Both the position numbers and the translations under genes were made by a program. The notes beneath the pieces were generated by a model. The model made no database searches, was not told where the DNA came from, and was given only the letters and a program-made list of their open reading frames with translations. Source: an uncultured Candidatus Saccharibacteria bacterium (GTDB taxonomy: Bacteria > Patescibacteriota > Minisyncoccia > Phycocordibacterales > PALSA-1337). From it: a stretch of DNA of 64,000 nucleotides. Below are positions 6,499 through 56,692 of this stretch, one piece after another. Each line of letters starts with the position of its first letter. Position 1 is the first letter of the stretch. Location: positions 895 to 64,894 of the forward strand of contig CAZHHB010000001.1 in NCBI GenBank assembly GCA_964532285.1, written 5' to 3'.

Positions 6499-6571
6499 AT
6501 TTTGTTCAATTTTTTATAAATAAAAGTCTCCTTATATTATCACAAAATTTCTACTTTATAACTTTATAACT

Positions 6572-7339
6572 TTATTGTGTGAGTATCTCCGCCCCGCCCT
6601 TCGTAATCACCACCGTGTGTTCGAAATGGGCACTCGGTTTGCCGTCGCGAGTACGATATGTATAACCATCCTTATCTAATTTTATTTCTTTCGTTCCCAG
6701 ATTGAACATCGGCTCAATAGCGATAACCATACCAGGACGGAGCAATTCACCCCCACCAGCTTCGCCGAAATTTGGCACAAAAGGATCTTCGTGTACAGCA
6801 TAACCTACCCCGTGACCAGCCAAATCTTCAACTATTCCATATCCATGGGGTATCGCTATTCTGGATATAACATTACCTATATCGCCAGTCTTTTTACCAC
6901 CCTTAGCCGCCCTGATCCCAGCATTGAGAGCTTCTTTCGTCACGTCAAGAAGTTTCCTTAATTCAATAGAAATCTCTCCTACAGGAACAGTTATAGCCGC
7001 GTCGGTGATGAGTTCTCTATGAGTAAGTCCCAGATCTATGCTCACAATATCTCCTTCTTTCAGAATCTTCTCATCTTCGTTGGGAATACCGTGGACGATT
7101 TCATCATTTACAGAAACGCAGATAGCCGCTGGATAAGGCCTCTTGGCTCCTCCAGGCGTATAGCCCAAAAAGGCTGACTTATCTCCACCCCCTGCTATCA
7201 GTTCTCGTGCGCGATTTTCCAATTCTATAGCATAAAGTCCTGGACGAACCATATTCGCCAACTCTTTCAAGATAAAGGCGTGGCGCTTGCCACCCTCTCG
7301 GAGAATCGCTATGTCTTCCTTTGTCTTTATGGCTATCAT
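6572..7339 (-). CDS. map: Methionine aminopeptidase type I
   Basis: 255 aa. Pita-bread fold motifs: DIVSIDLG, HGIGxxxHE-like (AGHGVGYAVHEDP), and EPM (IAIEPMF). Confidence 0.9.
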   Translation of the reverse strand: MIAIKTKEDIAILREGGKRHAFILKELANMVRPGLYAIELENRARELIAGGGDKSAFLGYTPGGAKRPYPAAICVSVNDEIVHGIPNEDEKILKEGDIVSIDLGLTHRELITDAAITVPVGEISIELRKLLDVTKEALNAGIRAAKGGKKTGDIGNVISRIAIPHGYGIVEDLAGHGVGYAVHEDPFVPNFGEAGGGELLRPGMVIAIEPMFNLGTKEIKLDKDGYTYRTRDGKPSAHFEHTVVITKGGAEILTQ

Positions 7340-9364: not shown

Positions 9365-10024
9365 TTATATATTACTCTTTGTCTCCTTCTTCGTCGAGGA
9401 TTTGGCTTCTTTTGGGACTTTTGCTTCTTTTACAGCTTTGACATCCTTGTTAACCGATTTCTCTTTGGAAAATTTCTTCTCTTTCACTGGAAGTGCCTCT
9501 TTTGCTTCAGCAGCCTTCTCTGTAGCAGGTTTCTTTACCTTTGGAACCTTCACAACAATCTTCTGTGTAGTTATAGGAACGACGATAGCGATAGTACCAC
9601 CAGCCTTTTCTATTTTATCCTTTGCTGAACCAGAGACGAAACAACCTGAGACCTTGAGAGCTTTCGTAATCTCACCATCACCCAAAATCTTCACCTTTGG
9701 AGTCTTGCCGGACTGAGTAGAGATAACACCGCTCTCAACCAAGATAGTTGGAGTTACAGAAGCACCAGCATCAAAAGATTTCTCTAAGATTGAAAGATTG
9801 ATAATAGCTGGTTTGGTCTGAATAGATTTGTTGGAATTTTTGCCACGACCGCGCAACTTTGGAAGTTTCTTGATGATATCCCTCCATTCTGGACGGCGTT
9901 TGTTACCAGCACGAGCTGATTGACCCTTGCCTCCACGACCAGCAGTCTTGCCGCGCTTACCACCACGTGCCACGATCATACGCTTCGTATTCGGATATTT
10001 TCTTTTCAGTTGATTGGTTTGCAT
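9365..10024 (-). CDS. rplO: 50S ribosomal protein L15 with a Lys/Ala-rich C-terminal extension
   Basis: N-terminus MQTNQLKRKYPNTKRMIVARGGKRGKTAGRGGKGQ is L15-like. The 219-aa length reflects a ~70-aa KxxKE-rich tail. Confidence 0.85.
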   Translation of the reverse strand: MQTNQLKRKYPNTKRMIVARGGKRGKTAGRGGKGQSARAGNKRRPEWRDIIKKLPKLRGRGKNSNKSIQTKPAIINLSILEKSFDAGASVTPTILVESGVISTQSGKTPKVKILGDGEITKALKVSGCFVSGSAKDKIEKAGGTIAIVVPITTQKIVVKVPKVKKPATEKAAEAKEALPVKEKKFSKEKSVNKDVKAVKEAKVPKEAKSSTKKETKSNI

Positions 10025-10066
10025 GATGTTAAGTTAAAAGTTGAAAGTAAAAAGTTAAAAGTAAGA

Positions 10067-16235: not shown

Positions 16236-16269
16236 ATTATCTTTCCTACTTTCTTTGCCCTCCGTAGCT

Positions 16270-16830
16270 TTAGCGAAGGAGGGTACCTTCCACTCTCTTG
16301 AGCGGCATTCCTATATGTTCCAAAAATGCTAGTGTAGCTTCCTTTGTCCTAGAAGTCGTAACCATAGTGATAGCGAAACCGAAAACATCTTTCAAATCTT
16401 CGTCAGAAGTTTCTGCGAAGATAGTGTGTTCCTTGATACCCATAGTGTAATTACCCATAGCATCCACAGAATCACGAGATAGACCGCGAAAGTCTTTCGT
16501 ACGAGGGAGAGCAATGTGGATCAGACGATCCATAAATTCAAACATTCTCTTACCACGAAGCGTTATCTGGTATCCCAATGGATCATTCAAACGAGTCTTG
16601 AAGGTTGCAACGGCTTTCTTAGCAACACGCACAGCCGGCTTTTGACCAGTGATCTTCGCCAATCTGTCAGCGATAAGTTCAATTTTCTTTTTGTCTTTTA
16701 CGGAACCGAAACCATTAGAAATAACAACCTTCACAAGCTTAGGTGCTTGCATAGGATTCTTCAGACCAAGTTTATCTTTTAAAACCTTGAATGAATCTTT
16801 ATTGAGTTCTGATACTGTTTTGTAAGTCAT
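16270..16830 (-). CDS. rplE: 50S ribosomal protein L5
   Basis: 186 aa. KLVKVVISNGFG...GYQITLRG. The stop codon lies inside the conserved hairpin element 16258-16283. Confidence 0.9.
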   Translation of the reverse strand: MTYKTVSELNKDSFKVLKDKLGLKNPMQAPKLVKVVISNGFGSVKDKKKIELIADRLAKITGQKPAVRVAKKAVATFKTRLNDPLGYQITLRGKRMFEFMDRLIHIALPRTKDFRGLSRDSVDAMGNYTMGIKEHTIFAETSDEDLKDVFGFAITMVTTSRTKEATLAFLEHIGMPLKRVEGTLLR

Positions 16831-17782: not shown

Positions 17783-18001
17783 CTATTTTTCCTCGCCCGC
17801 CGTAGCTTTAGCGGAGGCTGGGTTGGAACTTAGTGCTGTCATTATCCTAGCGATGTCTTTCCTTATGGAATACCCTTCTTTGACATTCTTGGTCTTGGCA
17901 CCGGCCGCCCCAAACCTAAAAACTCTCAAAGCTTCTCGTTTATCATTGAGCATTTTTGCCAAATCGGCGGCTGTTTCATTTTTGATTTTGAATTTTTTCA
18001 T
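17783..18001 (-). CDS. rpmC: 50S ribosomal protein L29
   Basis: 72 aa. ELRVFRFGAAGAKTKNVKEG. The C-terminal codons overlap a copy of the GTAGCTTTAGCG hairpin motif. Confidence 0.85.
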   Translation of the reverse strand: MKKFKIKNETAADLAKMLNDKREALRVFRFGAAGAKTKNVKEGYSIRKDIARIMTALSSNPASAKATAGEEK

Positions 18002-18051
18002 TTTTTTGAATGTCTTTTGTTGCCCACACTTTCCACTTTTGACTTTCTACT

Positions 18052-18477
18052 TTAAACTCTGCTAACTACCTTCGTCTTGACCGGCAACTTCGTCCCCGCC
18101 TTACGAAGTGCTTCGGCTGCAACCTCTGGTTCTACCCCGTCTATCTCAAACATGATACGGCCAGGTTTGACCTCGGCAATGAATCCCACTGGATCACCCT
18201 TACCTTTTCCCATTTTCACTTCGGCTGGCTTCTGTGTAAATGGATGATCTGGGAATATTCTAATCCAAACTTTTCCGGACTTCGTAGCGTAACGAGCCAT
18301 AACCTTGCGGGCAGCTTCTATCTGATTTGAAGTGATGCGGGCGTACTTCATGGCCTTCAATCCATATGAACCGAAAGCGATGTTTATGCCACGAGTATCA
18401 GCATGAGCCATCTCCTTGTCAGGATGAGTGCGCATTGTGAACCACTTACGATGTTTTACTTTTTTTGGGAATAACAT
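18052..18477 (-). CDS. rplP: 50S ribosomal protein L16
   Basis: 141 aa. MLFPKKVKHRKW... Confidence 0.92.
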   Translation of the reverse strand: MLFPKKVKHRKWFTMRTHPDKEMAHADTRGINIAFGSYGLKAMKYARITSNQIEAARKVMARYATKSGKVWIRIFPDHPFTQKPAEVKMGKGKGDPVGFIAEVKPGRIMFEIDGVEPEVAAEALRKAGTKLPVKTKVVSRV

Positions 18478-28264: not shown

Positions 28265-28313
28265 ACTTGGAACATTATAACAAACTCCATATATTTAGAA
28301 GCCCACACCTATC

Positions 28314-28351
28314 CAAGATCCGATCTAGGTATACCGAGATCCGATCTTGGA
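28314..28351. repeat. Tandem pair of the CCAAGATCCGATCTTGG-type palindrome, followed by GATAAT
   Basis: CCAAGATCCGATCTAGG (28314-28330) and CCGAGATCCGATCTTGG (28335-28351). The same palindrome occurs at 44965-44981, 45996-46013 and 46018-46034. Confidence 0.7.
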
Positions 28352-28359
28352 TAATTTTT

Positions 28360-28415
28360 ACTCATACCTCAGTGCCTCTATCGGACTCTTCTTGGACGCT
28401 TGGCTGGCAGGATAA
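28360..28415. repeat. 56-bp perfect direct-repeat copy of the 3' end (last 18 codons plus stop) of the MacB-like permease gene. It is the left boundary of the purD cassette.
   Basis: Identical to 29981-30036, which encodes ...GGYPASQASKKSPIEALRYE-stop of the permease. Confidence 0.9.
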
Positions 28416-29979: not shown

Positions 29980-31215
29980 CTACTCATACCTCAGTGCCTC
30001 TATCGGACTCTTCTTGGACGCTTGGCTGGCAGGATAGCCACCAAAGATGAGGCCTATGAGGGCCGATACGGAGAAACCGAGCAGTGCCCCGCCCCAAGGG
30101 AAGATGAACTGCCAATTGACGCCTAACCCCTTGGAAAGTCCTAGAGCAATAACAAATGACAACAATGATCCCAAGACAATACCGATGATACCACCCATGG
30201 CTGTAAGCAAGACAGCCTCAAGCAAGAACTGACGTAAAATATCCCTATCAGTTGCACCTAGAGCTTTGCGCAAGCCGATCTCACGCGTGCGCTCTGTGAC
30301 CGCCACAAGCATTATGTTCATGATCCCAACACCACCGACAAAAAGAGCGATCGATGCCATTGCCACGAGGAAATAAGTAAGCGTATCTGTAATGGTACCA
30401 AGACGATTCGCCAAGTCCTGCTGGGTTTGAACAGTAAAGTCATCCTTGGTTGGATCCGTAATACCGTGTGTCTCGCGTAAAGTTATTTTGATATCATCAG
30501 CCGTAACAGCTACATCCTGATCAGTTTCAGCCTGGATTATAAAACGACTGAAGTATTTCTGACCTAAAATATAATCTTGCGCTGTTGTATAAGGAACGAG
30601 CACCATATCATCAAAATTAAATAATGAACCGCCGCCAGTCTCCGGCAACACACCTATCACTTTGAAATTTCTACCTTTTATTTTGACTTTCTGTCCCAAG
30701 GCTTCATCACCATCAAAGAGATGTGTTTTCACTTTTGAACCTAGAATTGCCACATCACCTCGAGATAAAACATCATCACTAGTGAAGAATTCACCCTTAG
30801 GGTGTAGATCAAACACTTCAGCCATAAGTTGTGTCGCTCCAAAGATAGAGACCTGGTAGGTATTGGAATCATGAACAGCAGAACCTGCCCCGAAGACGGT
30901 CGGCATGATGGTCTTCAATTTCGGAACATTCGCCTTATTGCGTAAAGCGACAATATCTTTTTCTTTTAATGAATCACTGAACAAAGAAGTCACATCTGAT
31001 GGTCCAGTTGGTTCCCTGCCAGGAATAACCGCTATCATATTTGTCCCGAGGCCTTGTACTTGCCCGAGTATCAAAGCTTGTGCACCTGCACCCAGAGAGA
31101 CCACGAGCATGATAGCCGTAATACCTATCACAATACCGAGAATAGTAAGGGAGGTTCTTGACCTATTCGTAGTCAATCCAGTCAATGCGGTTTTTAAGAG
31201 GTGTTTCCAGGTCAT
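29980..31215 (-). CDS. ABC transporter permease, MacB/FtsX family
   Basis: 411 aa. Large periplasmic domain between TM1 and TM2, plus a C-terminal FtsX 4-TM bundle ending in ...PIEALRYE. Confidence 0.85.
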   Translation of the reverse strand: MTWKHLLKTALTGLTTNRSRTSLTILGIVIGITAIMLVVSLGAGAQALILGQVQGLGTNMIAVIPGREPTGPSDVTSLFSDSLKEKDIVALRNKANVPKLKTIMPTVFGAGSAVHDSNTYQVSIFGATQLMAEVFDLHPKGEFFTSDDVLSRGDVAILGSKVKTHLFDGDEALGQKVKIKGRNFKVIGVLPETGGGSLFNFDDMVLVPYTTAQDYILGQKYFSRFIIQAETDQDVAVTADDIKITLRETHGITDPTKDDFTVQTQQDLANRLGTITDTLTYFLVAMASIALFVGGVGIMNIMLVAVTERTREIGLRKALGATDRDILRQFLLEAVLLTAMGGIIGIVLGSLLSFVIALGLSKGLGVNWQFIFPWGGALLGFSVSALIGLIFGGYPASQASKKSPIEALRYE

Positions 31216-42381: not shown

Positions 42382-42758
42382 AATCCTTTGGTAATTGGTT
42401 ATTAGTTGTTAGTTGTTGGTAAAAACCAATAACTAACAACTAATAACTATTTGGGGCAATTCTGAATTATTCACCGCTTTCGACTTGAGTTGTGTCTGAG
42501 CGATTACTCATTCTTGCCTGATAAACGAACACTTATCCCCCGTAGAGGACAGTGAGGGTACCTTATCACAGAGGGCTCCTTTACGCAAATCTGACTAAAT
42601 TAGGTATTTCAAACAATAAAAAGAGCGCCCGATCGAGGAAATGATCGTGACGCCCTGTTCGAGCACCCAAAGAGCGATTTTATAATTAAATGCTCGGGAA
42701 CACCTGCACCCGTAGTTATATTAAATCTATAAGGATATTGCTGTCAATATCTGAGAGA

Positions 42759-44962: not shown

Positions 44963-44986
44963 TACCGAGATCCGATCTTGGTAATA

Positions 44987-45928
44987 TCACGGACTACCAA
45001 TTATAATCTTCGTCCCATCCAAAGTGACCTTGAGGGTCCCTTTTTCTTTTATGTTGAATCTACTATCCTTACCTATTGATTTGAGAGGACCTTCAATGAT
45101 TTTCTTTTTCGGATCAACACTTGAAGATGGTTTGCTTGGTTGTTTGCCGGACTGTTTACTTGGCGTCTGCGAGTAAACCAAGTATTTTGGTTGTAACTTA
45201 CCAATGAATTCACTTGAAATATTTGCTGGTAAAGCACTATGCGACACGATTAGAATATCGGTTTTGCCAAGTTTTGAATCTGTAGAAGTGGCTCCGGCTA
45301 GATATTTCTGAACTTTATTAGAAGCATTACCTGCAAACACGACCGATGTCTTCCCTATTGAAATAGTAAACAGTAATTCGGGCGCACTAGCTTTGGAATA
45401 AGTGAATTGATTAGCCAATACCGGAAAAACCACCTTCAATGAAGTTTTATCATCCAGAGAAATAATTTGACCAGCGACGACTTCATGCTTCGGGATCTTT
45501 TTGCGACTAAGTGAATTGAGAAATGTATCGTATATCTGATCAGTAGGCTCTGCCAATCCCAACGACTGCAAGGTTAATCCCGGAATATAAGCATCACTTA
45601 TGTCGTATCTATCTATAACATCTATAAGTCCAGACACATTCTTCCCTTCTGAGTTTGTGGCGATGATTGTGTCAATTCGTCTGGAATAAAAAGGTAAAAT
45701 CTCGGTCAATTCACGGATAACGCTAGAATTAGCACCACCATCAATAAGTATTCTTCTGTCTTCGGGTGTCCGAATGAACATGGAACGCCCACTTGATAAA
45801 GAAAAGACATATATTTCCAAGACAGGCGGACGGTTTTCTTGCTTCCAAGCATAGACACCCATACCTGTGGCTGTGGTGGCCACCGTTGCAGCTATTATGA
45901 ATGGCTTTGATATAACTTTCATCGTCAT
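44987..45928 (-). CDS. Stand-alone ComEC-type metallo-beta-lactamase domain protein with degenerate metal-binding motifs and an N-terminal TM helix
   Basis: ILIDGGAN, then IIATNSEGKNVSG where HxHxDH is expected. The C-terminal region ILIVSHSALPANISSEFIGKLQPKYLVYS aligns with the ComEC C-terminal region ...VLKVPHHGSKTSSSPEFL..V.PKYAIIS. Start taken at MTMKVISK. Confidence 0.55.
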   Translation of the reverse strand: MTMKVISKPFIIAATVATTATGMGVYAWKQENRPPVLEIYVFSLSSGRSMFIRTPEDRRILIDGGANSSVIRELTEILPFYSRRIDTIIATNSEGKNVSGLIDVIDRYDISDAYIPGLTLQSLGLAEPTDQIYDTFLNSLSRKKIPKHEVVAGQIISLDDKTSLKVVFPVLANQFTYSKASAPELLFTISIGKTSVVFAGNASNKVQKYLAGATSTDSKLGKTDILIVSHSALPANISSEFIGKLQPKYLVYSQTPSKQSGKQPSKPSSSVDPKKKIIEGPLKSIGKDSRFNIKEKGTLKVTLDGTKIIIGSP

Positions 45929-45949
45929 ATCACCATCATACTCACCAAA

Positions 45950-45988
45950 GATAAATTCCTGATAAAAAAGAGATAAATTCCTGATAAA
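45950..45988. repeat. Four direct GATAAA repeats at exact 11-bp phasing (GATAAAttcctGATAAAaaagaGATAAAttcctGATAAA), upstream of the MBL-domain gene
   Basis: GATAAA at 45950, 45961, 45972 and 45983. The same arrangement occurs at 48124-48162. Confidence 0.8.
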
Positions 45989-45995
45989 ATATAAA

Positions 45996-46042
45996 CCCAA
46001 GATCCGATCTTGGTATACCTAGATCCGATCTTGGGGTATAAT
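45996..46042. promoter_or_regulatory. Two CCAAGATCCGATCTTGG-type palindromes immediately followed by TATAAT (46037-46042). This is a putative operator plus promoter for the leaderless SOD-like gene.
   Basis: Palindromes at 45996-46013 and 46018-46034. The -10 ends 8 nt before the ATG at 46051. Confidence 0.5.
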
Positions 46043-46050
46043 TTACCCAT

Positions 46051-46644
46051 ATGCAAACATTCACCACACAAAAATTCAATATTCCAACATTAAAAGGTAT
46101 CTCAGCGAAGAGTGTAGAGGAGCATTTGAAGCTCTACGCTGGCTATGTGAAGAATGCTAACCTTATATTGGAAAAGGTTGCTGAATTGAAACAGGACGCG
46201 GAAAAGAATGCTTATTTACTAGGAGAGATCAACCGTCGCTTCGGTTTCGAATATAACGGTATGCGTAATCACGAAGTCTATTTTCGTTCATTAGAAGGCG
46301 GCGCGAAGTTATTTAATGGAGAAGGTGCCCTAAAAAAACTAATTACTGAAACATGGGGGTCATTCGACGCCTGGCTTGCTGAATTCAAGGCCATTGCCCT
46401 TACTCGCGGTATCGGCTGGGCCATGCTCTATTATGACCGCAAAGATGGTCGCCTATTAAACGCTTGGGTAGATGAACAGCATCTGGGCCAACTTCAGGAT
46501 TGTGCCCTCATACTCGGACTAGATATGTGGGAACATTCTTTTGTACTAGACTACCTCCCTTCCGGCAAGAAGAACTATGTTGAAGATTTCTTTGTTAATT
46601 TGAATTGGGAGGTAACAGAAAAGAACTTGGAAGAAGCGGGGTAA
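46051..46644 (+). CDS. Fe/Mn superoxide dismutase-like protein. The first metal-ligand His is replaced.
   Basis: C-terminal DMWEHSF (D and H ligands) and the NHEVYF His are present. The N-terminal motif reads VEEHLKLYAGY instead of HHxKHHxxY. Confidence 0.6.
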   Translation: MQTFTTQKFNIPTLKGISAKSVEEHLKLYAGYVKNANLILEKVAELKQDAEKNAYLLGEINRRFGFEYNGMRNHEVYFRSLEGGAKLFNGEGALKKLITETWGSFDAWLAEFKAIALTRGIGWAMLYYDRKDGRLLNAWVDEQHLGQLQDCALILGLDMWEHSFVLDYLPSGKKNYVEDFFVNLNWEVTEKNLEEAG

Positions 46645-46672
46645 GATTGAGACTATCTTCAAATAAATAATC

Positions 46673-48103
46673 TCAAAGTTCTTGAGGTATTTTTTGTTTG
46701 AGGCCTACCCTTCGTAGGCCTACCCTCCAATAAACCCCCGCAAACACCACATAAAACCCGACCACCCACCAGATAGAGAAAGCTGGAAGATGTGCAGAGG
46801 CAAATGGTAATCGTGCGAATTTCTCTACCATTAGAAGTTCGTACGAGAGTAGCAGGTGCGAGATCCAAGCCAAAAATTGGGCCAGTGGCAAATAGATCAT
46901 ACCAACTGCGCCTGTCAGGAAAACAAAGAGCATGGTGAGTGGAATGAATGGTAAAACCAAGATGTTCACGACCATGCCGATGATGGAGATCTGCCCCATC
47001 ATGTAGAGGATGTATGGCGAAATAAATATCTGTGTCGCTATGGTTGAAGCCACTATTCCACGCATACCAAATCTCTCTGGGATGAATTTCAAATGCTTCT
47101 CCACTGGACTAGCGAGTAGAATCAAACCCAGTGTAGCCAAAAATGAAAGTTGGAATGATGGATCGTGAAGCAAGATCATTGGATTCTGAATGAGCATAAT
47201 CAAAGCAGCAAAGATCAAAGCGCGAACCACATTGTAATCTCTCCTTATGAGACTGGCAGAAAGAGCGATACCCGCCATGAAGCATGAACGCACGACTGTC
47301 GCGCCTCCGCCAACCAATACTCCAAATAACATTATCCCAGAGCCACCCAAGCCAATACCCCAAACACGCGGTAGAGATGAAAGCATCCTGCGTATAGCGT
47401 CACCGACAATAGTGATGTTATATCCAGACAAAACAATGATGTGTATGAGGCCAACAGTCCTAAAGTCATTCAGTAAATCCTTACCTAAAGCCGCTTTCTC
47501 TCCTACCACAAGTCCTGCCGCCAATGCCGCATGTGGTTCACCAAGTGTCTTTTCCAGATTACCGACGAATTTCCCTTTCAACGAGAACAACCAGGAAGAA
47601 ATTTTTATAGATATCTGACCGATCCGCCCCCCAACATCTTGCGTCGAGTGACTCACGCCAGAACTTTCAATAATATTATCTGAGAGACTTCCCTTAACTA
47701 CCGCGCTTTTCATTTCATAGAAAACATCGTCTTTCGCTAGATATCCACGATAATCAAATTCTCTATCGTCACCGCTACTGAAATTTACTGGTCGAAGTAG
47801 TTTCCCTTTGAAGCTCACATGATCACTGAAATCAAATTCTGGATATAATTTTGTCTTCAAGCGAAGATTGAATCCTCCGTTACACGATTTTGAAGTACTG
47901 GCGACTTGAAGTTCTCCTACTGACACAACAAAAACTTGACCGGATTCCTTGCGTTCGGGTTCATTTGTGATAATACCAACACCCTCCACAATCTCTTTCA
48001 AACAATTACCAGTATTGGGTATGACCATGCCGAAAGACTGCCACAACCGGAATGATGCGGCCGTCACAAATAAGCTCCAGAATATAAAAACACCCCTTTT
48101 CAT
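46673..48103 (-). CDS. comEC: ComEC/Rec2-like DNA internalization channel protein (N-terminal OB/DUF4131 plus competence domain). It lacks the C-terminal MBL domain.
   Basis: 476 aa. Polytopic competence domain with IHIIVLSGYNITIVG (ComEC HxxxSGxH-type region). Ends after the membrane domain. Confidence 0.7.
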   Translation of the reverse strand: MKRGVFIFWSLFVTAASFRLWQSFGMVIPNTGNCLKEIVEGVGIITNEPERKESGQVFVVSVGELQVASTSKSCNGGFNLRLKTKLYPEFDFSDHVSFKGKLLRPVNFSSGDDREFDYRGYLAKDDVFYEMKSAVVKGSLSDNIIESSGVSHSTQDVGGRIGQISIKISSWLFSLKGKFVGNLEKTLGEPHAALAAGLVVGEKAALGKDLLNDFRTVGLIHIIVLSGYNITIVGDAIRRMLSSLPRVWGIGLGGSGIMLFGVLVGGGATVVRSCFMAGIALSASLIRRDYNVVRALIFAALIMLIQNPMILLHDPSFQLSFLATLGLILLASPVEKHLKFIPERFGMRGIVASTIATQIFISPYILYMMGQISIIGMVVNILVLPFIPLTMLFVFLTGAVGMIYLPLAQFLAWISHLLLSYELLMVEKFARLPFASAHLPAFSIWWVVGFYVVFAGVYWRVGLRRVGLKQKIPQEL

Positions 48104-48123
48104 AGGGATATCTTACTCGCACA

Positions 48124-48162
48124 AGATAAATTCTAGATAAAAAAGAGATAAATTCTAGATAA
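48124..48162. repeat. Second copy of the four-fold GATAAA repeat at 11-bp phasing (TTCTA spacers), immediately upstream of the comEC start
   Basis: GATAAA at 48124, 48135, 48146 and 48157. Confidence 0.8.
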
Positions 48163-48883
48163 ACTCTTTCTTAATCGCTTCCTCATCCTCCCTACTTACC
48201 GCCTTTTTATATCTCGCACCTTTCGTCCCCTTCACGCGTCTCTCACAATCAGGCCAAGAATGATGGATCTGAATCACGCCGCCTACAGAACTCACATATG
48301 AATATGCTTTCGCTCTAGAATGAGATGACGAAGATTTCTTCGTAGCTTCTTTTTCCTCATCTACAGATATATTCATAATATTTGGCAAACTATAGTCAAC
48401 AAGCAACCCTTCATATAACTTCACATCACCACCATCGGCGAAAGCCGTAGCTATCTCATCACACCTCTCGTTACCGATAATCCCCGCATGACCACTGATC
48501 CTCTTCCAGACAATCTTGCGGCCTTCTGTGGCATCCATCAACTCTAACCACAAGTCCTTGTTTAACACATCTTCTTTGGCTTTTGTGATCCAACCATTGC
48601 GTTTCCAACCATGCACCCACTTCGTAATACCGTTTATAACATAGGCAGAATCAGTGAAAACTGTTATTTCCTGATCTTCGACAGAACCATTTACAGATTC
48701 CAAAGAGTTAAATGCCTGCACAACAGCCGTTAGTTCCATTCTATTATTGGTAGTATTTTTCTCACCGCCACCCAACTCCGTCACGCTGATTCCGTTTACA
48801 TTCATACCGTCCAAGATAATTGTCCCCCAACCACCAGGACCAGGATTGCCTCTAGAAGAACCGTCTGTAAATATTGTAATCAC
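48155..48883 (-). CDS. rnhA: Ribonuclease HI with a C-terminal hybrid-binding-domain (HBD)-like module
   Basis: N-terminal RNase H: IFTDGSSRGNPGPGGWG...TNNRMEL...DSAYV. C-terminal KAYSYVSSVGGVIQIHHSWPDCERRVKGTKGARYKKAVSREDEEAIKKEF matches the HBD consensus (xYAVxxGxxxGIYxxWxEC...VxGxxGAxYKKF). Confidence 0.75.
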   Translation of the reverse strand: MITIFTDGSSRGNPGPGGWGTIILDGMNVNGISVTELGGGEKNTTNNRMELTAVVQAFNSLESVNGSVEDQEITVFTDSAYVINGITKWVHGWKRNGWITKAKEDVLNKDLWLELMDATEGRKIVWKRISGHAGIIGNERCDEIATAFADGGDVKLYEGLLVDYSLPNIMNISVDEEKEATKKSSSSHSRAKAYSYVSSVGGVIQIHHSWPDCERRVKGTKGARYKKAVSREDEEAIKKEFI

Positions 48884-48930
48884 GCTATTTGATATTAAAC
48901 TGATATTAAATTGCTATTATATTTATTGTC

Positions 48931-50676
48931 CTAAGAATATACCACATCCTCTATCCTCAGTCGTAATTCGGCTCTACCACGATACATGGATTTTTCCAGA
49001 GATGCGATGAGATCTATAGGTTTGCCTGCCCGAATCTCTTTTGCCCACTTACTAGATTCGCCGAAAAATGAAATTGCCGAAACCTTATCTCCATTTGATT
49101 TATTGAATATCAGCTCCACATGATTATTGGTTTTACCGAATTTCCTAAATGTCTTTGGAATAATTTGCTTAAAGAGAAATATTGGCTTCGGATTGCCCGT
49201 ACCGAATGGCGCCAATTTATTTATCTCTTCATGAAGACGGCCGCTAATAGCATCTATTGTAAGCTCTGAATCAATAAAATCCTCCACCTTGTCCGAGGTC
49301 GGCTTGCCCTCTGTGTTATTGGTAGACAAGAGGCTCTGAATAGATTCACAAGCTTTATTCAATGACTCTTCCAAAAAGTGAATCTTCTCATTTGAAACCG
49401 CAAAACCACCTGAGTGATGATGGCCACCAAATTGAATCAATCCTCCGACTGGTAAAGCCCGCATCAATTCGACAACATTGGACTCACCCTCCGACCTACA
49501 AGATCCTTTGATTATATTATCGCCATCCCTACCCCACAGAAAAACTGGACGATCAAATTCCTCGGCACACGAGTTTGCCGCCAACCCAAGTAGTGATGGC
49601 CTCCAATCAGGATTGCCTAGAACCAAAACGGATGGCATGGAAGACCCGTATCTATCATGAACTTTTCTCTTTACCTCTTTTACCAAAGAGGCTACGACCC
49701 CCTTTCTCTCATCATTTATCTTATTTAAGTGTTCGGCTGAAGTGTACGCATCATTATCATTGTCCGCCGCAAGGAGATCAAAAGCATCCCTAGGAACACC
49801 CATACGCGAAGCGGCATTGATCCTAGGTGTAATCATGAAAGCGATATCATCTTCGGTTAGGAATTTCTGATTGATTTTCAATTTACGGAGAAGTTGGACC
49901 AACCCTTTACGCGGACTTTTGCGCAAAACCGCTAGACCATAGTGAGCAAAGACGCGATTCTCCCCGACCAAAGGCACCATGTCTGACATCGTAGCGATGC
50001 CCACCAAATCAAGTAGCCACTTTTCCATACCTTCTTTGAGACCGAAACGATCCTTTTTTAATATAGCCTGAACAAGTTTGTACGCCACACCAGAACCACA
50101 GAGATTCTTGTCGGGATATTTACAATCAACTTGTTTATGATCAATGATAGCAAAAGCTGGAGGCAACTCTGGTGGTGGTTCGTGGTGATCTGTCACAATA
50201 ACATCCATACCCATCTTTTTGGCATGAGCTATAGGGCCAACATCTGTAATACCGCAATCCAAAGTGATCAAAAGTTTCACCCCTTCCCCTACTAGTTGAA
50301 TCACCGCTTCTTCATTCACACCGAACCCCTCATCGTGTCTGTGTGGAATATATACGGAATAATTTGCGAAACCAATCCTCTTGAAGAAATCACTAAACAT
50401 CGCAGCTCCAGGGATACCGTCTGCATCATAGTCAGCATAGATAGCGATCCTCTCATTATTTTTTATTGATTGAATGATACGGTCAGCGGATTTTTCTGCG
50501 TCTTTCAAGAGAAATGGATCATGTATGTCGCGATCATAGTCTGGGGAGATGAATCCTTGGGCAGACTTTTCACTATCAAAACCGCGATGGAACAAGAGGT
50601 GCGCGGTCAGATCTGGGAGTGAATTCAGATTCAAACGTTCTTTATGAGTCAATGCTCGGCGGATATTATAAGACAT
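48931..50676 (-). CDS. recJ: Single-stranded-DNA-specific exonuclease RecJ
   Basis: DHH motifs ([28 protein letters not shown]), a DHHA1 domain and a C-terminal OB-like region. Confidence 0.85.
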
Positions 50677-51556: not shown

Positions 51557-51691
51557 AAACTGAATCCTCCGTGGTTAAGGTTGCATTATTTACTACCTGC
51601 AGAAAGCATATATGTAATCCCATTGAAAATCAACAGGACCAACTTTACTTGTCCTCCGTAGCTTTAGCGAAGGAGGATAACTTTCAACTTT

Positions 51692-53678: not shown

Positions 53679-54899
53679 CTAGATTGCATTTACCAATGAA
53701 TACATAGGGGATATCATGGAAATAGCAAAGAAGCCTACAGCGGCACCAATAATGATCATCAGGAATGGCTCTATGACAGTAGACATATCTTTTGTTCTTT
53801 GCTCCACATCATCTTCATAATATCGTGCAACCCCCAAAAGCATCTCTCCTGTTTTCCCGGTCTCTTCACCAACACTCATCATCTCTGCGAAAAATACAGG
53901 GTATAATTTGCCGTATTCCGCAAAGACTTTCGACACCAGATCACCCTTTTTTATAGATTCCGCGGCTTTCTCCAGAACTGCTCTGAAATGAACATTCTGC
54001 ACGACAGTACCAGTGATCGTCACCGCTTCAACAACACCAACCCCAGAACCTAGAAGAGAGGCGAGGGTACGCGCCGTTCGAGCAGTATTGACCTCTTGCA
54101 ACAAAGTGCCGACGACTGGAATTTTCAAGACCAAACTGTGAACGAACCTCTTGCCTGCCGGCTTTCGCGATAACCACCAGAAAATACCAAATAATATCAT
54201 CAGGCCCAGAACCAAAAGCAATCCATAATGTTGAACCAAATTGCTAGTCTCCAAGACTACGCGTGTGGTAAAAGGCAATTTTACATTCAATTCCGTGAAT
54301 GTTTTGAGTAGTGTCGGAATGACAAAAATAAACATTAGGACTGCAATCAGGATCATAGCTCCCACAATAACAGACGGATACATCATGGCTCCACGAACAC
54401 GCCTCTCCAGTGAATGAGCGCTATCTAACTGAGTAGCTACGACCTTCAGTGACTCAGCCAATGTCCCGGATTGTTCACCGGCATGAACCATGGCAATGAA
54501 TACTGGTGGAAATGTTTTGCCATGTTTAGCCAAAGAATCTCCAAACGTAGAACCCTTGCTGATATCCGTAATGAGTCCAGAGAGAATCTTCTTGAAAGAC
54601 TTGTTCTTTGTCTGGCGTTCCAAGACCGACAACGCTCTAGACAGAGCCAATCCCGCTTCCAACATTGAACCCAAATTTCTGGCAAAGTTTATCTTTTCTA
54701 TGGTCTTTATTTTTTTAGATAAAAAATTGAATGAAATGTTCAAATGAAACCCCTTACCAGACTTTTTCTCTTGTACAGAAATCAGCTCATCTCCGCCTTC
54801 GCGGATTATTCTATACAATTCGTAACGATCGTCTACATCCTTCTGATCAGAATATATTTCACCTGAAGGCTTTTTTGCTTTGAAAATAAAGTGTGACAT
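53679..54899 (-). CDS. pilC: Type IV pilus / T2SS inner-membrane platform protein PilC/GspF
   Basis: 406 aa. Two GspF repeats. Confidence 0.85.
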   Translation of the reverse strand: MSHFIFKAKKPSGEIYSDQKDVDDRYELYRIIREGGDELISVQEKKSGKGFHLNISFNFLSKKIKTIEKINFARNLGSMLEAGLALSRALSVLERQTKNKSFKKILSGLITDISKGSTFGDSLAKHGKTFPPVFIAMVHAGEQSGTLAESLKVVATQLDSAHSLERRVRGAMMYPSVIVGAMILIAVLMFIFVIPTLLKTFTELNVKLPFTTRVVLETSNLVQHYGLLLVLGLMILFGIFWWLSRKPAGKRFVHSLVLKIPVVGTLLQEVNTARTARTLASLLGSGVGVVEAVTITGTVVQNVHFRAVLEKAAESIKKGDLVSKVFAEYGKLYPVFFAEMMSVGEETGKTGEMLLGVARYYEDDVEQRTKDMSTVIEPFLMIIIGAAVGFFAISMISPMYSLVNAI

Positions 54900-54943
54900 G
54901 TTTCAATATTAAATCTCAAAAGTTAAACCGGGGAAACAATGAT

Positions 54944-56692
54944 CTACTCGGATACGACACGTAAGACTTCCTCTATGGTTGTCAAACCGGAAACGCATTT
55001 GAATATGCCGTCTTCTATCATAGTGAGCATCCCCTCTTTTTTGGCTTGAGCCTCTATATCACCCGAGGTAGACTCTTTCATGACCAACTCTCTGATAGTC
55101 GGGGACATTCTCAAAACTTCGTGTATACCTACTCTACCCTTGAAACCATCATCATCACCAGCAGGAACTGCCCTCCAAAAAGGAATCTTGTCCCAATCAT
55201 CACCTGGTTTTACTATCTTCTCCGCCCTCAAAGCTTCCAGGACATGGTTCATATCAACCACTTTTTCCAATTGAGAAAACTCAGCTTTTGAAAGCTTGTA
55301 CGACTCTTTGCTGTCAGTCAGACGACGGACGAGGCGCTGGCCAATGACAATATTCAATGTAGAAACAAGTAAAAACGGCTCCACTTTCATATCCATGAGA
55401 CGAGGAATGGCACCTGCGGCGGAGTTGGTGTGTAGAGTAGACAGGACCAAGTGGCCAGTCAGGGCCGCATTTACGGCCAAGGCGGCGGATTCATTGTCTC
55501 GGATCTCACCAACCATGATCACATCTGGGTCTTGACGAACAAGGGTGCGTATTCCCTGAGCAAAAGTAAACCCTATCTCTGGTCGAACCTGTGTCTGATT
55601 GATACGAGCAACTTGATATTCAATAGGATCTTCAATTGTAGAGATGTTGACATCTGGAGCATTTAAAATATCCAACATTGTATATAAGCTTGTGGTTTTA
55701 CCGGAACCAGTTGGACCTGTCGTGAGGATCATGCCCGTGGTCTGCTTGAGAGCTGTGTGAATACGTTCCAAACTCTCCCCATGGAATGTTAGATACTCCA
55801 GGGTGTATCCGGATATACTCTCGCGTAGAAGACGCATAACAATCTTCTCTCCATAATAAGTCGGTAATATTGACACACGAAAAGAAACTCTCTCATCGCT
55901 CATATCCACTTTAAATCTCCCATCCTGGGGCAATCGTTTTTCGTCCAACTTAAGACTAGAGAGAACCTTGATACGGGCTGAGATGGAAGGTCCTGCTTGT
56001 TTCGGTAGAACCATGGCATCATGGAGAAGTCCGTCAATACGGTACCTCACCAAGACTTGATCATCCATAGGTTCTATGTGTATATCAGAAGCATTTTGAA
56101 TAACGGCGTGCTTTATCAGTGTATCCACAATACGGACGACCGGCAAATCTTCTGCGATCTTTTTCAGATCAGTCTCTGATAAGGTCTCACCTTTATCTTC
56201 GGAGATCATCTTCAGGGAAGCCGTCTCTTTTTGGATAATGTCTCCAAATTCAGCCTTTAGACTCTTTTGGTATTGGACCAGGACATCTTTGACGGATTCT
56301 GTATCAGTTAAGCGGGGTAATATCTTCAGATTGACCTTCTTTCTTATGAAGTCAATAGCCGAAAGATCATTCACATCCAACATTGCAACTTCCAAAGCGA
56401 CATCAGTTTTCTTGTAAGCGACAATATTGTGTCCACGGGCAATAGGTTCTGGAATAAGAGAAAGTGTCTCAAATGGGATCTTCTTGTTCTTGAGGTCAAC
56501 AAACGGTATGCCCAAGACATAGGCTTGCATGCGATGGAGGTTGTCAGCCGTGATCTTGCCGGCAGTGACTAGAATATCACCGAGACGACTATTATTTTTC
56601 TCGCTCTGTTTCTTGGCATCTTCCAGGTCAATCTTGGAAACAAGTCCCGAGTCTAAAATGAACTTATAAAGCTGGGCATCTTCGACGAACAT
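54944..56692 (-). CDS. pilB: Type IV pilus assembly ATPase PilB/GspE
   Basis: N-terminal GSPII_E_N domain. Walker A GPTGSGKTT. Asp box and His box. Confidence 0.9.
   Translation of the reverse strand: MFVEDAQLYKFILDSGLVSKIDLEDAKKQSEKNNSRLGDILVTAGKITADNLHRMQAYVLGIPFVDLKNKKIPFETLSLIPEPIARGHNIVAYKKTDVALEVAMLDVNDLSAIDFIRKKVNLKILPRLTDTESVKDVLVQYQKSLKAEFGDIIQKETASLKMISEDKGETLSETDLKKIAEDLPVVRIVDTLIKHAVIQNASDIHIEPMDDQVLVRYRIDGLLHDAMVLPKQAGPSISARIKVLSSLKLDEKRLPQDGRFKVDMSDERVSFRVSILPTYYGEKIVMRLLRESISGYTLEYLTFHGESLERIHTALKQTTGMILTTGPTGSGKTTSLYTMLDILNAPDVNISTIEDPIEYQVARINQTQVRPEIGFTFAQGIRTLVRQDPDVIMVGEIRDNESAALAVNAALTGHLVLSTLHTNSAAGAIPRLMDMKVEPFLLVSTLNIVIGQRLVRRLTDSKESYKLSKAEFSQLEKVVDMNHVLEALRAEKIVKPGDDWDKIPFWRAVPAGDDDGFKGRVGIHEVLRMSPTIRELVMKESTSGDIEAQAKKEGMLTMIEDGIFKCVSGLTTIEEVLRVVSE

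Follow-up and report, generated by a model that had tools for sequence, protein, structure and literature searches.

Tandem hexamer arrays before comEC and a separately encoded ComEC-type metallo-beta-lactamase gene: a likely operator of a competence regulon in Patescibacteria

This study concerns a 64,000-nucleotide (nt) stretch of DNA from an uncultured Candidatus Saccharibacteria bacterium (contig CAZHHB010000001.1 of assembly GCA_964532285.1; the whole stretch, 64 kb, is called the window below), in which the two parts of the DNA-uptake protein ComEC, the membrane channel and the metallo-beta-lactamase (MBL) domain, are encoded by different genes, and in which both genes are preceded by an array of four direct TTTATC hexamers (GATAAA on the + strand) with a period of exactly 11 bp. 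We consider it likely that these arrays are the operator of a Patescibacteria competence regulon driven by a two-component system of the OmpR/PhoB family. A preliminary description of this DNA, made from the letters alone, had proposed a regulator-binding array, co-regulation of the two ComEC halves and possibly a competence regulon, and these proposals are supported here from two sides: in other Patescibacteria the same module stands before comEC, the MBL-like gene and genes for a T2SSE ATPase, pilins, ComM and RecA, and it also lies between the genes of an OmpR-family regulator and a histidine kinase. The elements in the window at the centre of the argument are the following.

Positions 48125 to 48163, minus strand: candidate operator array of the comEC promoter, TTTATC-tagaa-TTTATC-tcttt-TTTATC-tagaa-TTTATC in gene orientation.
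Positions 48110 to 48115, minus strand: -10-like hexamer of the comEC promoter, TAAGAT, with a gap of 9 nt to the last TTTATC upstream and of 6 nt to the ATG downstream (48103-48101).
Positions 46673 to 48103, minus strand: comEC, channel-only, 476 amino acids, with an oligonucleotide-binding (OB) fold (DUF4131) and a Competence transmembrane domain and no MBL domain.
Positions 45950 to 45988, minus strand: candidate operator array of the MBL-like gene promoter, TTTATC-aggaa-TTTATC-tcttt-TTTATC-aggaa-TTTATC in gene orientation.
Positions 45935 to 45940, minus strand: -10-like hexamer of the MBL-like promoter, TATGAT, again with a gap of 9 nt to the last TTTATC upstream and of 6 nt to the ATG downstream (45928-45926).
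Positions 44987 to 45928, minus strand: gene of a stand-alone ComEC-type MBL-fold protein of 313 amino acids, with an N-terminal transmembrane helix at residues 7-31 and degenerate metal-ligand motifs.

A chance or low-complexity origin of the arrays is ruled out by shuffled sequences, a mismatch scan and a weight-matrix scan. The pair GATAAA-N5-GATAAA has six overlapping matches in the window, on the + strand and all inside the two arrays, a number reached in none of 100 shuffles; the full 39-nt form with four GATAAA matches only at these two places when up to three mismatches are allowed; and a position weight matrix (PWM) built from the arrays of other genomes scores 52.9 bits at the MBL-like locus and 41.4 bits at the comEC locus, with no further site above 8 bits and thus no third array in the 64 kb. 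The preliminary description had allowed that such arrays might simply be scattered through an AT-rich genome without promoter association; in fact the hexamer pair is expected 0.01 times by shuffling, both arrays stand upstream of genes, and the window, with a G+C content of about 42%, is not especially AT-rich. Of the two intervals given there, 45950-45988 is correct and the other, 48124-48162, has to be moved by one base. The spacers, read on the + strand, are TTCCT, AAAGA and TTCCT at the MBL-like locus and TTCTA, AAAGA and TTCTA at the comEC locus, which agrees with the homogenisation within each locus remarked on before; since the first and third spacers are identical, each locus is an exact repeat of a 22-bp unit. 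The duplication of this unit together with its locus-specific spacer is best explained by slippage or conversion between neighbouring units. The likeness of the two arrays continues for 15 nt towards the genes, to a total of 54 nt at 85% identity (repeat family D5). The iteron-type array of a replication origin, which had been offered as an alternative, finds no support and was rejected, as there are two separate clusters, each in a fixed register with a -10-like hexamer and a start codon, and the module is also found before many unlinked genes of other genomes.

The layout downstream of the arrays is the same at both loci. In gene orientation a -10-like hexamer lies between the four TTTATC hexamers and the ATG, 9 nt from the former and 6 nt from the latter, and if the ATG is the transcription start the TTTATC hexamers span about -60 to -22; the MBL-like gene has a second ATG at 45922. 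A consensus scan for a sigma-70 -35/-10 pair finds none before comEC or the MBL-like gene, while canonical TTGACA-17-TATAAT promoters occur elsewhere in the window, and the two promoters therefore look activator-dependent. Going by their sequence, they are probably leaderless, with transcription presumably starting at the ATG. Such a layout is common in this genome: among the 44 genes of the window with an upstream gap of at least 40 nt, a -10-like hexamer precedes the start codon by 5-9 nt in 19, and a Shine-Dalgarno-like motif is present in only 4. At the comEC locus the last two codons and the stop codon of the preceding gene, rnhA, make up the distal hexamer of the array and the TAG that follows it.

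The array is conserved in relatives, and the manner of its conservation is informative. In UBA5187, whose MBL protein is 60% identical to that of the window, comEC and the MBL-like gene are each preceded by TTTATC-N5-TTTAAC-N5-TTTATC-N5-TTTATC, at unchanged distances from the -10 and the ATG. The hexamers of more distant genomes drift to TTGAAC, TTAGAT, TTCATC, TTCATA or TTGAGC, and these genomes keep the 11-bp phasing and both downstream gaps, the -10 being separated by 9 nt from the last hexamer and by 6-8 nt from the ATG. Thus three such loci (L176, L178 and L180; labels of this kind are our own and denote loci of other genomes) have diverged 11-bp-phased hexamers ending 9 nt before the -10, and in L179 (47% protein identity) all that remains is periodic repeats with a different sequence. 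In an 876-kb Paceibacteria genome (ERZ25039590 contig_40023) the comEC, MBL-like and kinase promoters have one and the same diverged array, ..TTCATC-gtttc-TTGAGC-ctttc-TTGAGC-gtttc-TTTATC. Array identity is 83% within a genome and 58% between genomes, and for the spacers taken alone 78% and 36%, a pattern that fits an operator co-evolving with a genome-specific regulator.

Which genes carry the array elsewhere was addressed by scanning sequence collections. A first scan over one genome per species with TTTAWC(N5)x4 gave at least 120 stretches, and among the matches listed most were simple 11-bp tandem repeats from Bacteroidales and other unrelated phyla, so that this pattern was abandoned as too loose; the Patescibacteria matches listed all fit a stricter form. 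The refined pattern, which requires NRRAW in the proximal spacer, was used for a scan of a metagenome collection, from which about a third of the matches, again simple tandem repeats, were filtered out. With tandem repeats removed, the two scans yield at least about 40 distinct arrays, all in Patescibacteria-type contexts and of one geometry: the number of repeats runs from four to six, with many promoters extended upstream by a fifth and a sixth; every promoter compared has 9-10 nt between its last hexamer and a TAnnnT hexamer; and in many of them TG or GAG stands just before the -10 (extended -10-like). The genes linked to these arrays are listed here by locus.

L002 and L162: comEC.
L002 and L138: MBL-like gene.
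L026 and L044/L136: short T2SSE (PilB/ComGA-like) ATPase, 383 amino acids, E 3.7e-110.
L023/L126: RecA, E 5.7e-127.
L139: ComM/ChlI.
L165 and L167: type IV pilins, that of L167 within a pilus gene cluster.
L135, L147, L125 and L099/L172: histidine kinases.
L128, L133 and L153: PemK/MazF-like toxins at three independent arrays, E 1e-12 to 1e-7.
L127: PBECR1 nuclease-like gene, E 1.9e-12.
L150 and L072: a family of 138-140-amino-acid proteins of no known function, 54% identical.
L123: a 123-amino-acid coiled-coil protein.
Others: two large secreted proteins and small tRNA-like RNAs.

Classical DNA-uptake and recombination genes are found at roughly a third of the arrays, against a few percent of the genes of such genomes, in a comparison that is rough and biased by the search. 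The array-linked ATPases of relatives, being short, suggest a separate ComG-like pilus for DNA uptake. The toxin genes of the PemK/MazF type are an unexpected class for a competence regulon. The array-driven RNAs of about 72 nt (L044 4172-4244, L163 6868-6940, L164 482-553, and also L136 5153-5225) match only both ends, that is the tRNA-like domain, of the Rfam model for transfer-messenger RNA (tmRNA), at 23-30 bits and thus below the gathering score; ARAGORN reads two of them as unusual tRNAs whose anticodon is at position 31. It is possible that the array regulon includes small tRNA-like RNAs of this kind, none of which was found in the 64-kb window.

The most likely regulator, assigned by its association with the array in relatives, would be a response regulator of the OmpR/PhoB family. 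In L135 an OmpR-family response regulator gene (receiver and winged helix) ends 40 nt before an array and a histidine kinase gene comes next; the regulator-array arrangement recurs in L125, L147, L140, L099/L172 and L152, and in at least eight related loci a gene with Response_reg and Trans_reg_C domains ends at the array and a kinase gene follows. A test independent of the motif started from three regulator homologues on long contigs for which DNA was at hand (L175, L177 and L181), and in all three the array begins at or just after the regulator stop codon, with a kinase gene following in L175 and L181 and not in L177. Because the regulator gene ends directly at the array and the cognate kinase gene follows, the two-component system appears to be autoregulated. 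In NCBIfam the regulator falls below the equivalog cut-offs for PhoB (178 bits against 296), CopR and others, and none of these models claims it. A Pho regulon was rejected on this ground and for want of pst or pho genes near the arrays or the regulator, and Pho is kept below as an architectural analogy only. As a separate observation, the regulator-linked arrays of L135 (about 2431-2450), L175, L177, L181 (4736-4756), L147, L125 and L140 carry a conserved inverted repeat, GGTTATGAGTCGACATAACC, about 5-8 nt after the -10, which precedes the histidine kinase gene (in L177 no kinase gene comes after it); its role may be that of a hairpin in the 5' leader, of a small RNA or of a second operator, and the 64-kb window has no copy.

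Let us consider how such an operator might work. Paired direct hexamers, one per helical turn and abutting the -10, are a hallmark of the OmpR/PhoB family, and for this reason we propose that the phosphorylated regulator would bind head-to-tail as two or more dimers, one per hexamer pair, with the best-conserved proximal pair, TTTATC-aGGAt-TTTATC, perhaps nucleating the binding. The bound regulator would then contact RNA polymerase and stand in for the missing -35, in the way of PhoB, CiaR and Streptomyces PhoP, so recruiting the polymerase to the leaderless promoters of the regulon, those of comEC and the MBL-like gene among them, and the kinase gene would be subject to positive feedback. Under this scheme the two arrays would be the regulator-binding parts of two homologous promoters lacking a -35, through which one regulator would control both comEC, with its OB fold and channel, and the separately encoded MBL domain, and the module would be the cis-element of a DNA-uptake and recombination regulon conserved in Paceibacteria and related Patescibacteria. 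We infer binding by this regulator, and activation rather than repression, presumably in response to a sensed signal. A wider scenario, quite possible and put forward tentatively, is that Patescibacteria (at least Paceibacteria, and possibly the Saccharibacteria-labelled metagenome-assembled genome (MAG) of the window) possess a dedicated, autoregulated OmpR-type system that turns on DNA uptake and whose operator of four to six TTnAnC repeats co-evolves with it in each genome, and whose regulon would take in the two-gene ComEC, with an MBL subunit serving purely as a strand guide, a ComG-like pilus, ComM, RecA, PemK-type toxins, Barnase/EndoU-like nucleases that possibly replace the ComEC nuclease, and a 72-nt RNA resembling the tRNA part of tmRNA.

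Several points weigh against the assignment of the arrays to a competence regulon under an activating OmpR/PhoB-family system. The search for an OmpR- or GATA-like regulator, advised in the preliminary description, leads to an OmpR-family gene at the array in relatives and to none in the window; the 64 kb hold no response regulator or histidine kinase homologue at all, and the regulator link therefore rests on other genomes. The scan pattern was derived from the window, and the tally of downstream genes is both biased by the search and incomplete. Some half of the genes linked to arrays fall outside the classical competence set, and the regulon may extend beyond competence. No array is found by PWM at the main pilB/pilC pair of the window (53679-56692), which would make the regulon a selective one:

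Positions 53679 to 54899: pilC (T2SSF), no array.
Positions 54944 to 56692: pilB (T2SSE and MshEN, 582 amino acids), no array.

In addition, the high likeness of arrays within a genome, spacers included, could come partly from copying of the promoter module and not from selection by the regulator, and a repressor could make use of sites overlapping the -35 position just as well.

This last point deserves to be followed through. In the repressor version, the same OmpR-family regulator or some other protein would coat the DNA from -35 to -60 and keep the competence genes off until a signal arrives, whereupon extended -10-like promoters would fire without an activator. The array does occupy the place where a -35 is expected, many array promoters have the TG or GAG before the -10 with which they could work without a -35, and one kind of 11-nt repeat serves Streptomyces PhoP for activation as well as for repression (PMC3479208). 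On the other hand, the -10 elements of the window (TAAGAT and TATGAT) are weak and lack a -35, and the fixed distance of 9-10 nt from the last hexamer to the -10 in at least about 40 promoters is that of PhoB/CiaR-type activation; a repressor would need no such strict register. We thus regard repression as unlikely. Binding of the array by a different transcription factor, for example a small DNA-binding protein of which the two-component system is merely one more target, would account for the window having no regulator, and one may point out that the OmpR-family regulator is assigned by association only and that conserved array-linked proteins are available for the part (the 138-140-amino-acid family of L150/L072 and the coiled-coil protein of L123). 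These proteins of no known function, however, have no recognisable DNA-binding domain, whereas hexamer-N5-hexamer at one helical turn is the signature of the OmpR/PhoB winged helix; in all lineages examined the array comes after the regulator gene, and this holds for the three of three loci found independently of the motif; and a two-component operon is commonly controlled by its own regulator. We find this alternative improbable.

The possibility that no dedicated regulator exists is in our estimate very improbable. The array would then be a 50-nt promoter cassette that propagates itself or has been duplicated, its phased T/A-rich repeats acting as bent, UP-element-like DNA. In its favour are the near-identity of the arrays within a genome, down to the spacers and some flanks, and the exact duplication of the 22-bp unit at each window locus, and other intergenic regions of the window also contain short tandem repeats of 7-14 bp. 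Against it, the information content between genomes resides in the hexamer positions and not in general A/T content, the downstream genes are strongly biased to DNA uptake and recombination in unrelated contigs, and several hexamers of the 876-kb genome have turned G/C-containing (TTGAGC), which fits co-evolution with a protein better than bending.

The preliminary description had taken the 313-amino-acid protein for a stand-alone ComEC-type C-terminal MBL fold, and the evidence supports its being a ComEC-type MBL domain. Although Pfam gives no match for it even at E 10, a profile of 64 family members run against all PDB sequences hits only ComEC MBL domains (E 5e-15 and 9e-14) and nothing else at E up to 1. 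The AlphaFold2 model (pLDDT 91.5) consists of the transmembrane helix at residues 7-31 followed by an MBL fold, and its top Foldseek match is the ComEC beta-lactamase-like domain 9ic4 (E 3.6e-18, TM 0.79). Set against TIGR00361, the model for ComEC/Rec2, the channel gene corresponds to positions 98-384 and the MBL-like protein to positions 434-631. One might nevertheless take the protein for an unrelated enzyme of the MBL superfamily, such as a Pce-like phosphodiesterase, lying near comEC by coincidence, given that Pfam does not recognise it and that the next fold after 9ic4, at Foldseek ranks 2-4, is the pneumococcal phosphorylcholine esterase Pce (E 1.9e-11 and weaker). This match is seven orders of magnitude weaker than that to 9ic4, and the authors of the ComEC MBL structure likewise name Pce as the closest structural neighbour of that very domain (PMC12455585). 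Moreover, the family profile matches ComEC MBL domains alone in the PDB; an esterase role is unlikely with the metal ligands lost family-wide; and the gene order with comEC and the common candidate operator are both conserved. We therefore give coincidence hardly any weight.

The metal ligands themselves are largely gone. In the alignment to the C-terminal domain of ComEC, whose catalytic motif is H-x-D-x-D-H (PMC12455585), the protein has IIATNSEGKNVSG at the HPDADH motif, SSGRS at GQGD and VSHSAL at VPHHGS, which is to say that N-S-E-G-K-N replaces HxHxDH, SSGR replaces GQGD and one His of HHGS is kept; the ligand substitutions listed in the preliminary description are thereby borne out. The consensus of the 64 family members at the motif is T-N-[TS]-[DE]-G-K-N-V-S-G, with His at the two outer motif positions in only 2 and 6 of the 64, and about 20 other positions are invariant across them. 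Because the ligands are lost across the 64 members, their loss is a property of the family and not the decay of one genome, and because the ligands needed for a nuclease are missing we do not file the protein as an active ComEC nuclease. Of the 307 members of the family that could be detected, the best 120 are all stand-alone proteins of 285-367 amino acids, and the named ones among these 120 come from Paceibacterota, Taylorbacteria or Patescibacteria.

The channel and the MBL-like protein are different polypeptides, with a gene for a superoxide dismutase (SOD)-like protein between them and a transmembrane helix of its own on the MBL-like protein. To judge from sequence, the latter is probably a conserved, membrane-anchored, non-catalytic partner of the ComEC channel, with which it would presumably interact, and by the positive-inside rule its MBL-like domain probably faces outward; PMC8579336 places the ComEC MBL domain on the outer side in Gram-positives. 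The MBL domain of full-length ComEC breaks down the strand that is not transported, one of its loops sitting at the point of duplex separation, and in S. pneumoniae the MBL domain of ComEC is without catalytic ligands and a separate nuclease, EndA, degrades the non-transported strand (PMC12455585). By analogy, the MBL subunit of Paceibacteria probably keeps a structural, strand-guiding role: it would sit on the outer face of the membrane beside the channel as a subunit without nuclease activity, and another enzyme would cut the non-transported strand, if it is cut at all. The ComECs of L162 (642 amino acids) and L178 (607 amino acids) bear homologous C-terminal extensions of about 130 amino acids (L162 1674-2159 and L178 4670-5080), 35% identical at E 7e-28 and weakly PBECR2-like (Barnase/EndoU/RelE type; E 2-3e-4, below the Pfam cut-off). 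It is possible that these PBECR-like extensions and the array-linked PBECR1 gene of L127 are substitutes for the presumably lost ComEC nuclease.

The comEC of the window ends after the competence membrane domain, as the preliminary description had it: Pfam finds PF03772 (Competence, E 6.7e-47, residues 198-459) and PF13567 (DUF4131, E 8.1e-9) and no Lactamase_B, and the protein stops 17 residues past the Competence domain. Such 'DC' ComECs, of DUF4131 and Competence only, are common and occur in 14 of 51 known competent strains (PMC6299819). Its neighbours, which had likewise been named correctly, are:

Positions 46051 to 46644, plus strand: SOD-like gene (Sod_Fe_C, weak Sod_Fe_N), between the two ComEC parts.
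Positions 48155 to 48883, minus strand: rnhA, an RNase H gene whose Cauli_VI-like domain is C-terminal, a syntenic neighbour adjoining the comEC promoter on its upstream side, its 3' end overlapping the array.
Positions 48931 to 50676, minus strand: recJ (DHH, DHHA1 and RecJ_OB), upstream of rnhA, a syntenic neighbour.

The conserved order is recJ, rnhA, comEC, SOD-like (reverse), MBL-like, L28 (reverse), M50 protease, S12. It was compared in UBA5187, the P0003 contigs, the 876-kb genome, L178, L179 and L180, and is kept in every relative examined, at times with a small extra gene inserted; the MBL proteins of this set are 45-60% identical to that of the window. The SOD-like gene holds its position in all of these relatives and has its own promoter (TATAAT at 46037-46042) and no array, and hence we take it as context and not as a member of the regulon. 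As to rnhA, its Cauli_VI or hybrid-binding-like domain is C-terminal (residues 200-228), although the Pfam family is named 'Ribonuclease H1 N-terminal domain', and the open reading frame as listed has a GTG start.

Comparison with known systems is instructive. The CiaR box, TTTAAG-N5-TTTAAG, lies 10 nt upstream of a -10 without a -35, and the CiaRH system of Streptococcus, which has ties to the control of competence, has both protein genes and small RNA genes as its targets (PMC3091779). The array resembles it in having TTTATC-N5-TTTATC 9-10 nt upstream of the -10 and in driving tRNA-like RNAs in some cases. It differs in the last base of the hexamer, C (or A) where the reported critical base of CiaR is G, in having four to six repeats instead of two, in its targets, which are the uptake machinery (comEC, pilins, recA) while CiaR affects competence indirectly, and in its Patescibacteria hosts and a regulator that no equivalog model claims. 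Streptomyces PhoP binds two to six direct repeat units of 11 nt (PMC3479208). With Pho boxes, where tandem dimers of an OmpR-family protein replace the -35, the array has the 11-nt direct repeats in common. The pho box of E. coli and the PhoP core binding region of B. subtilis, four TT(A/T/C)ACA repeats, are built alike. Unlike in the Pho systems, the hexamer sequence is different and no pst or pho genes lie beside the arrays or the regulator.

One cis-element common to comEC, pilus and recA genes is a familiar principle of competence control, as in the K-boxes of ComK, the cin-box of ComX/SigX, Sxy with CRP-S sites, and the ComE repeats. ComDE is itself a two-component system whose regulator binds direct repeats, ComE being a LytTR protein with 9-bp repeats about 21 bp apart, whereas the array has a period of 11 bp and, as its candidate regulator, an OmpR-family protein with a winged helix. 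By eye, neither a cin-box (TACGAATA) nor a CRP-S palindrome is seen upstream of comEC or the MBL-like gene. A/T runs 5 nt apart within the array, e.g. AAAAAAGAGATAAATT on the + strand at 45965-45980, would by sequence allow a K-box-like half-site; we keep to four direct TTTATC because the hexamers are conserved across genomes. In having a channel without an active nuclease domain, the present ComEC resembles the 'DC' ComECs and the combination of ComEC and EndA in S. pneumoniae. It is unlike them in that the presumably dead MBL is a separate gene with its own membrane anchor and a conserved family, located two genes from comEC in a fixed order and predicted to be co-regulated with it.

Three ingredients are already known individually: ComECs that lack an MBL domain, MBL domains that are inactive, and repeat operators of the OmpR type. 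In the literature searched we found no description of a ComEC split with a separate dead MBL gene (the word 'separate' does not occur in PMC6299819), nor of a separately encoded conserved dead MBL subunit, the operator or the two-component link in Patescibacteria. Cultivated Saccharibacteria were recently shown to be naturally competent, and their genetics builds on this (PMC10633639); on control of DNA uptake in Patescibacteria the literature searched gave nothing, and the word stem 'regulat' is not found in PMC10633639. A conserved operator together with a candidate kinase and regulator would make the control of uptake directly testable. The regulon could become predictable across thousands of MAGs, the signal that triggers uptake could be sought, and competence might perhaps be made inducible on demand in organisms that are hard to manipulate. 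The conserved, presumably dead MBL subunit, for its part, bears on the mechanism of ComEC and suggests a structural role, in strand separation or guidance, that outlasts the loss of the nuclease.

Other repeats and elements of the window may be described briefly. A 17-bp palindrome, CCAAGATC-C-GATCTTGG, has five copies against 0.6 expected. Two of them (45997-46013 and 46018-46034), 21 bp apart, abut the -10 of the SOD-like gene and come within 9 bp of the MBL array; two (28313-28329 and 28334-28350) lie between purD and an EamA transporter gene; and one (44965-44981) lies between the convergent L28 and MBL-like genes. The palindrome could be the operator of a dimeric regulator, a terminator-like hairpin or a small repeat element, and it was not found in the corresponding region of UBA5187. 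An exact 56-nt duplicate occurs at 28359-28414 and 29981-30036, one copy at the 3' end of an FtsX/MacB-like gene (29980-31215) and the other intergenic, beside the palindromes. Short tandem repeats with periods of 7-14 bp stand just upstream of genes at 48890-48919, 1536-1611, 6553-6575, 10031-10062, 17974-18053 and 42398-42449, all different; examples are TGATATTAAAC repeated 2.7 times before rnhA and AAGTTAA repeated 4.6 times before the gene at 9365-10024. A 48-nt repeated element with the hairpin CCTCCGTAGCTTTAGCGAAGGAGG, possibly a terminator or an element of the repetitive extragenic palindromic (REP) kind, is intergenic at 16245-16292, 17783-17830 and 51639-51686. Finally, the window has a standard tmRNA gene at 632-992, which encodes the tag peptide AKSTVSPYFGQKDFAFALV.

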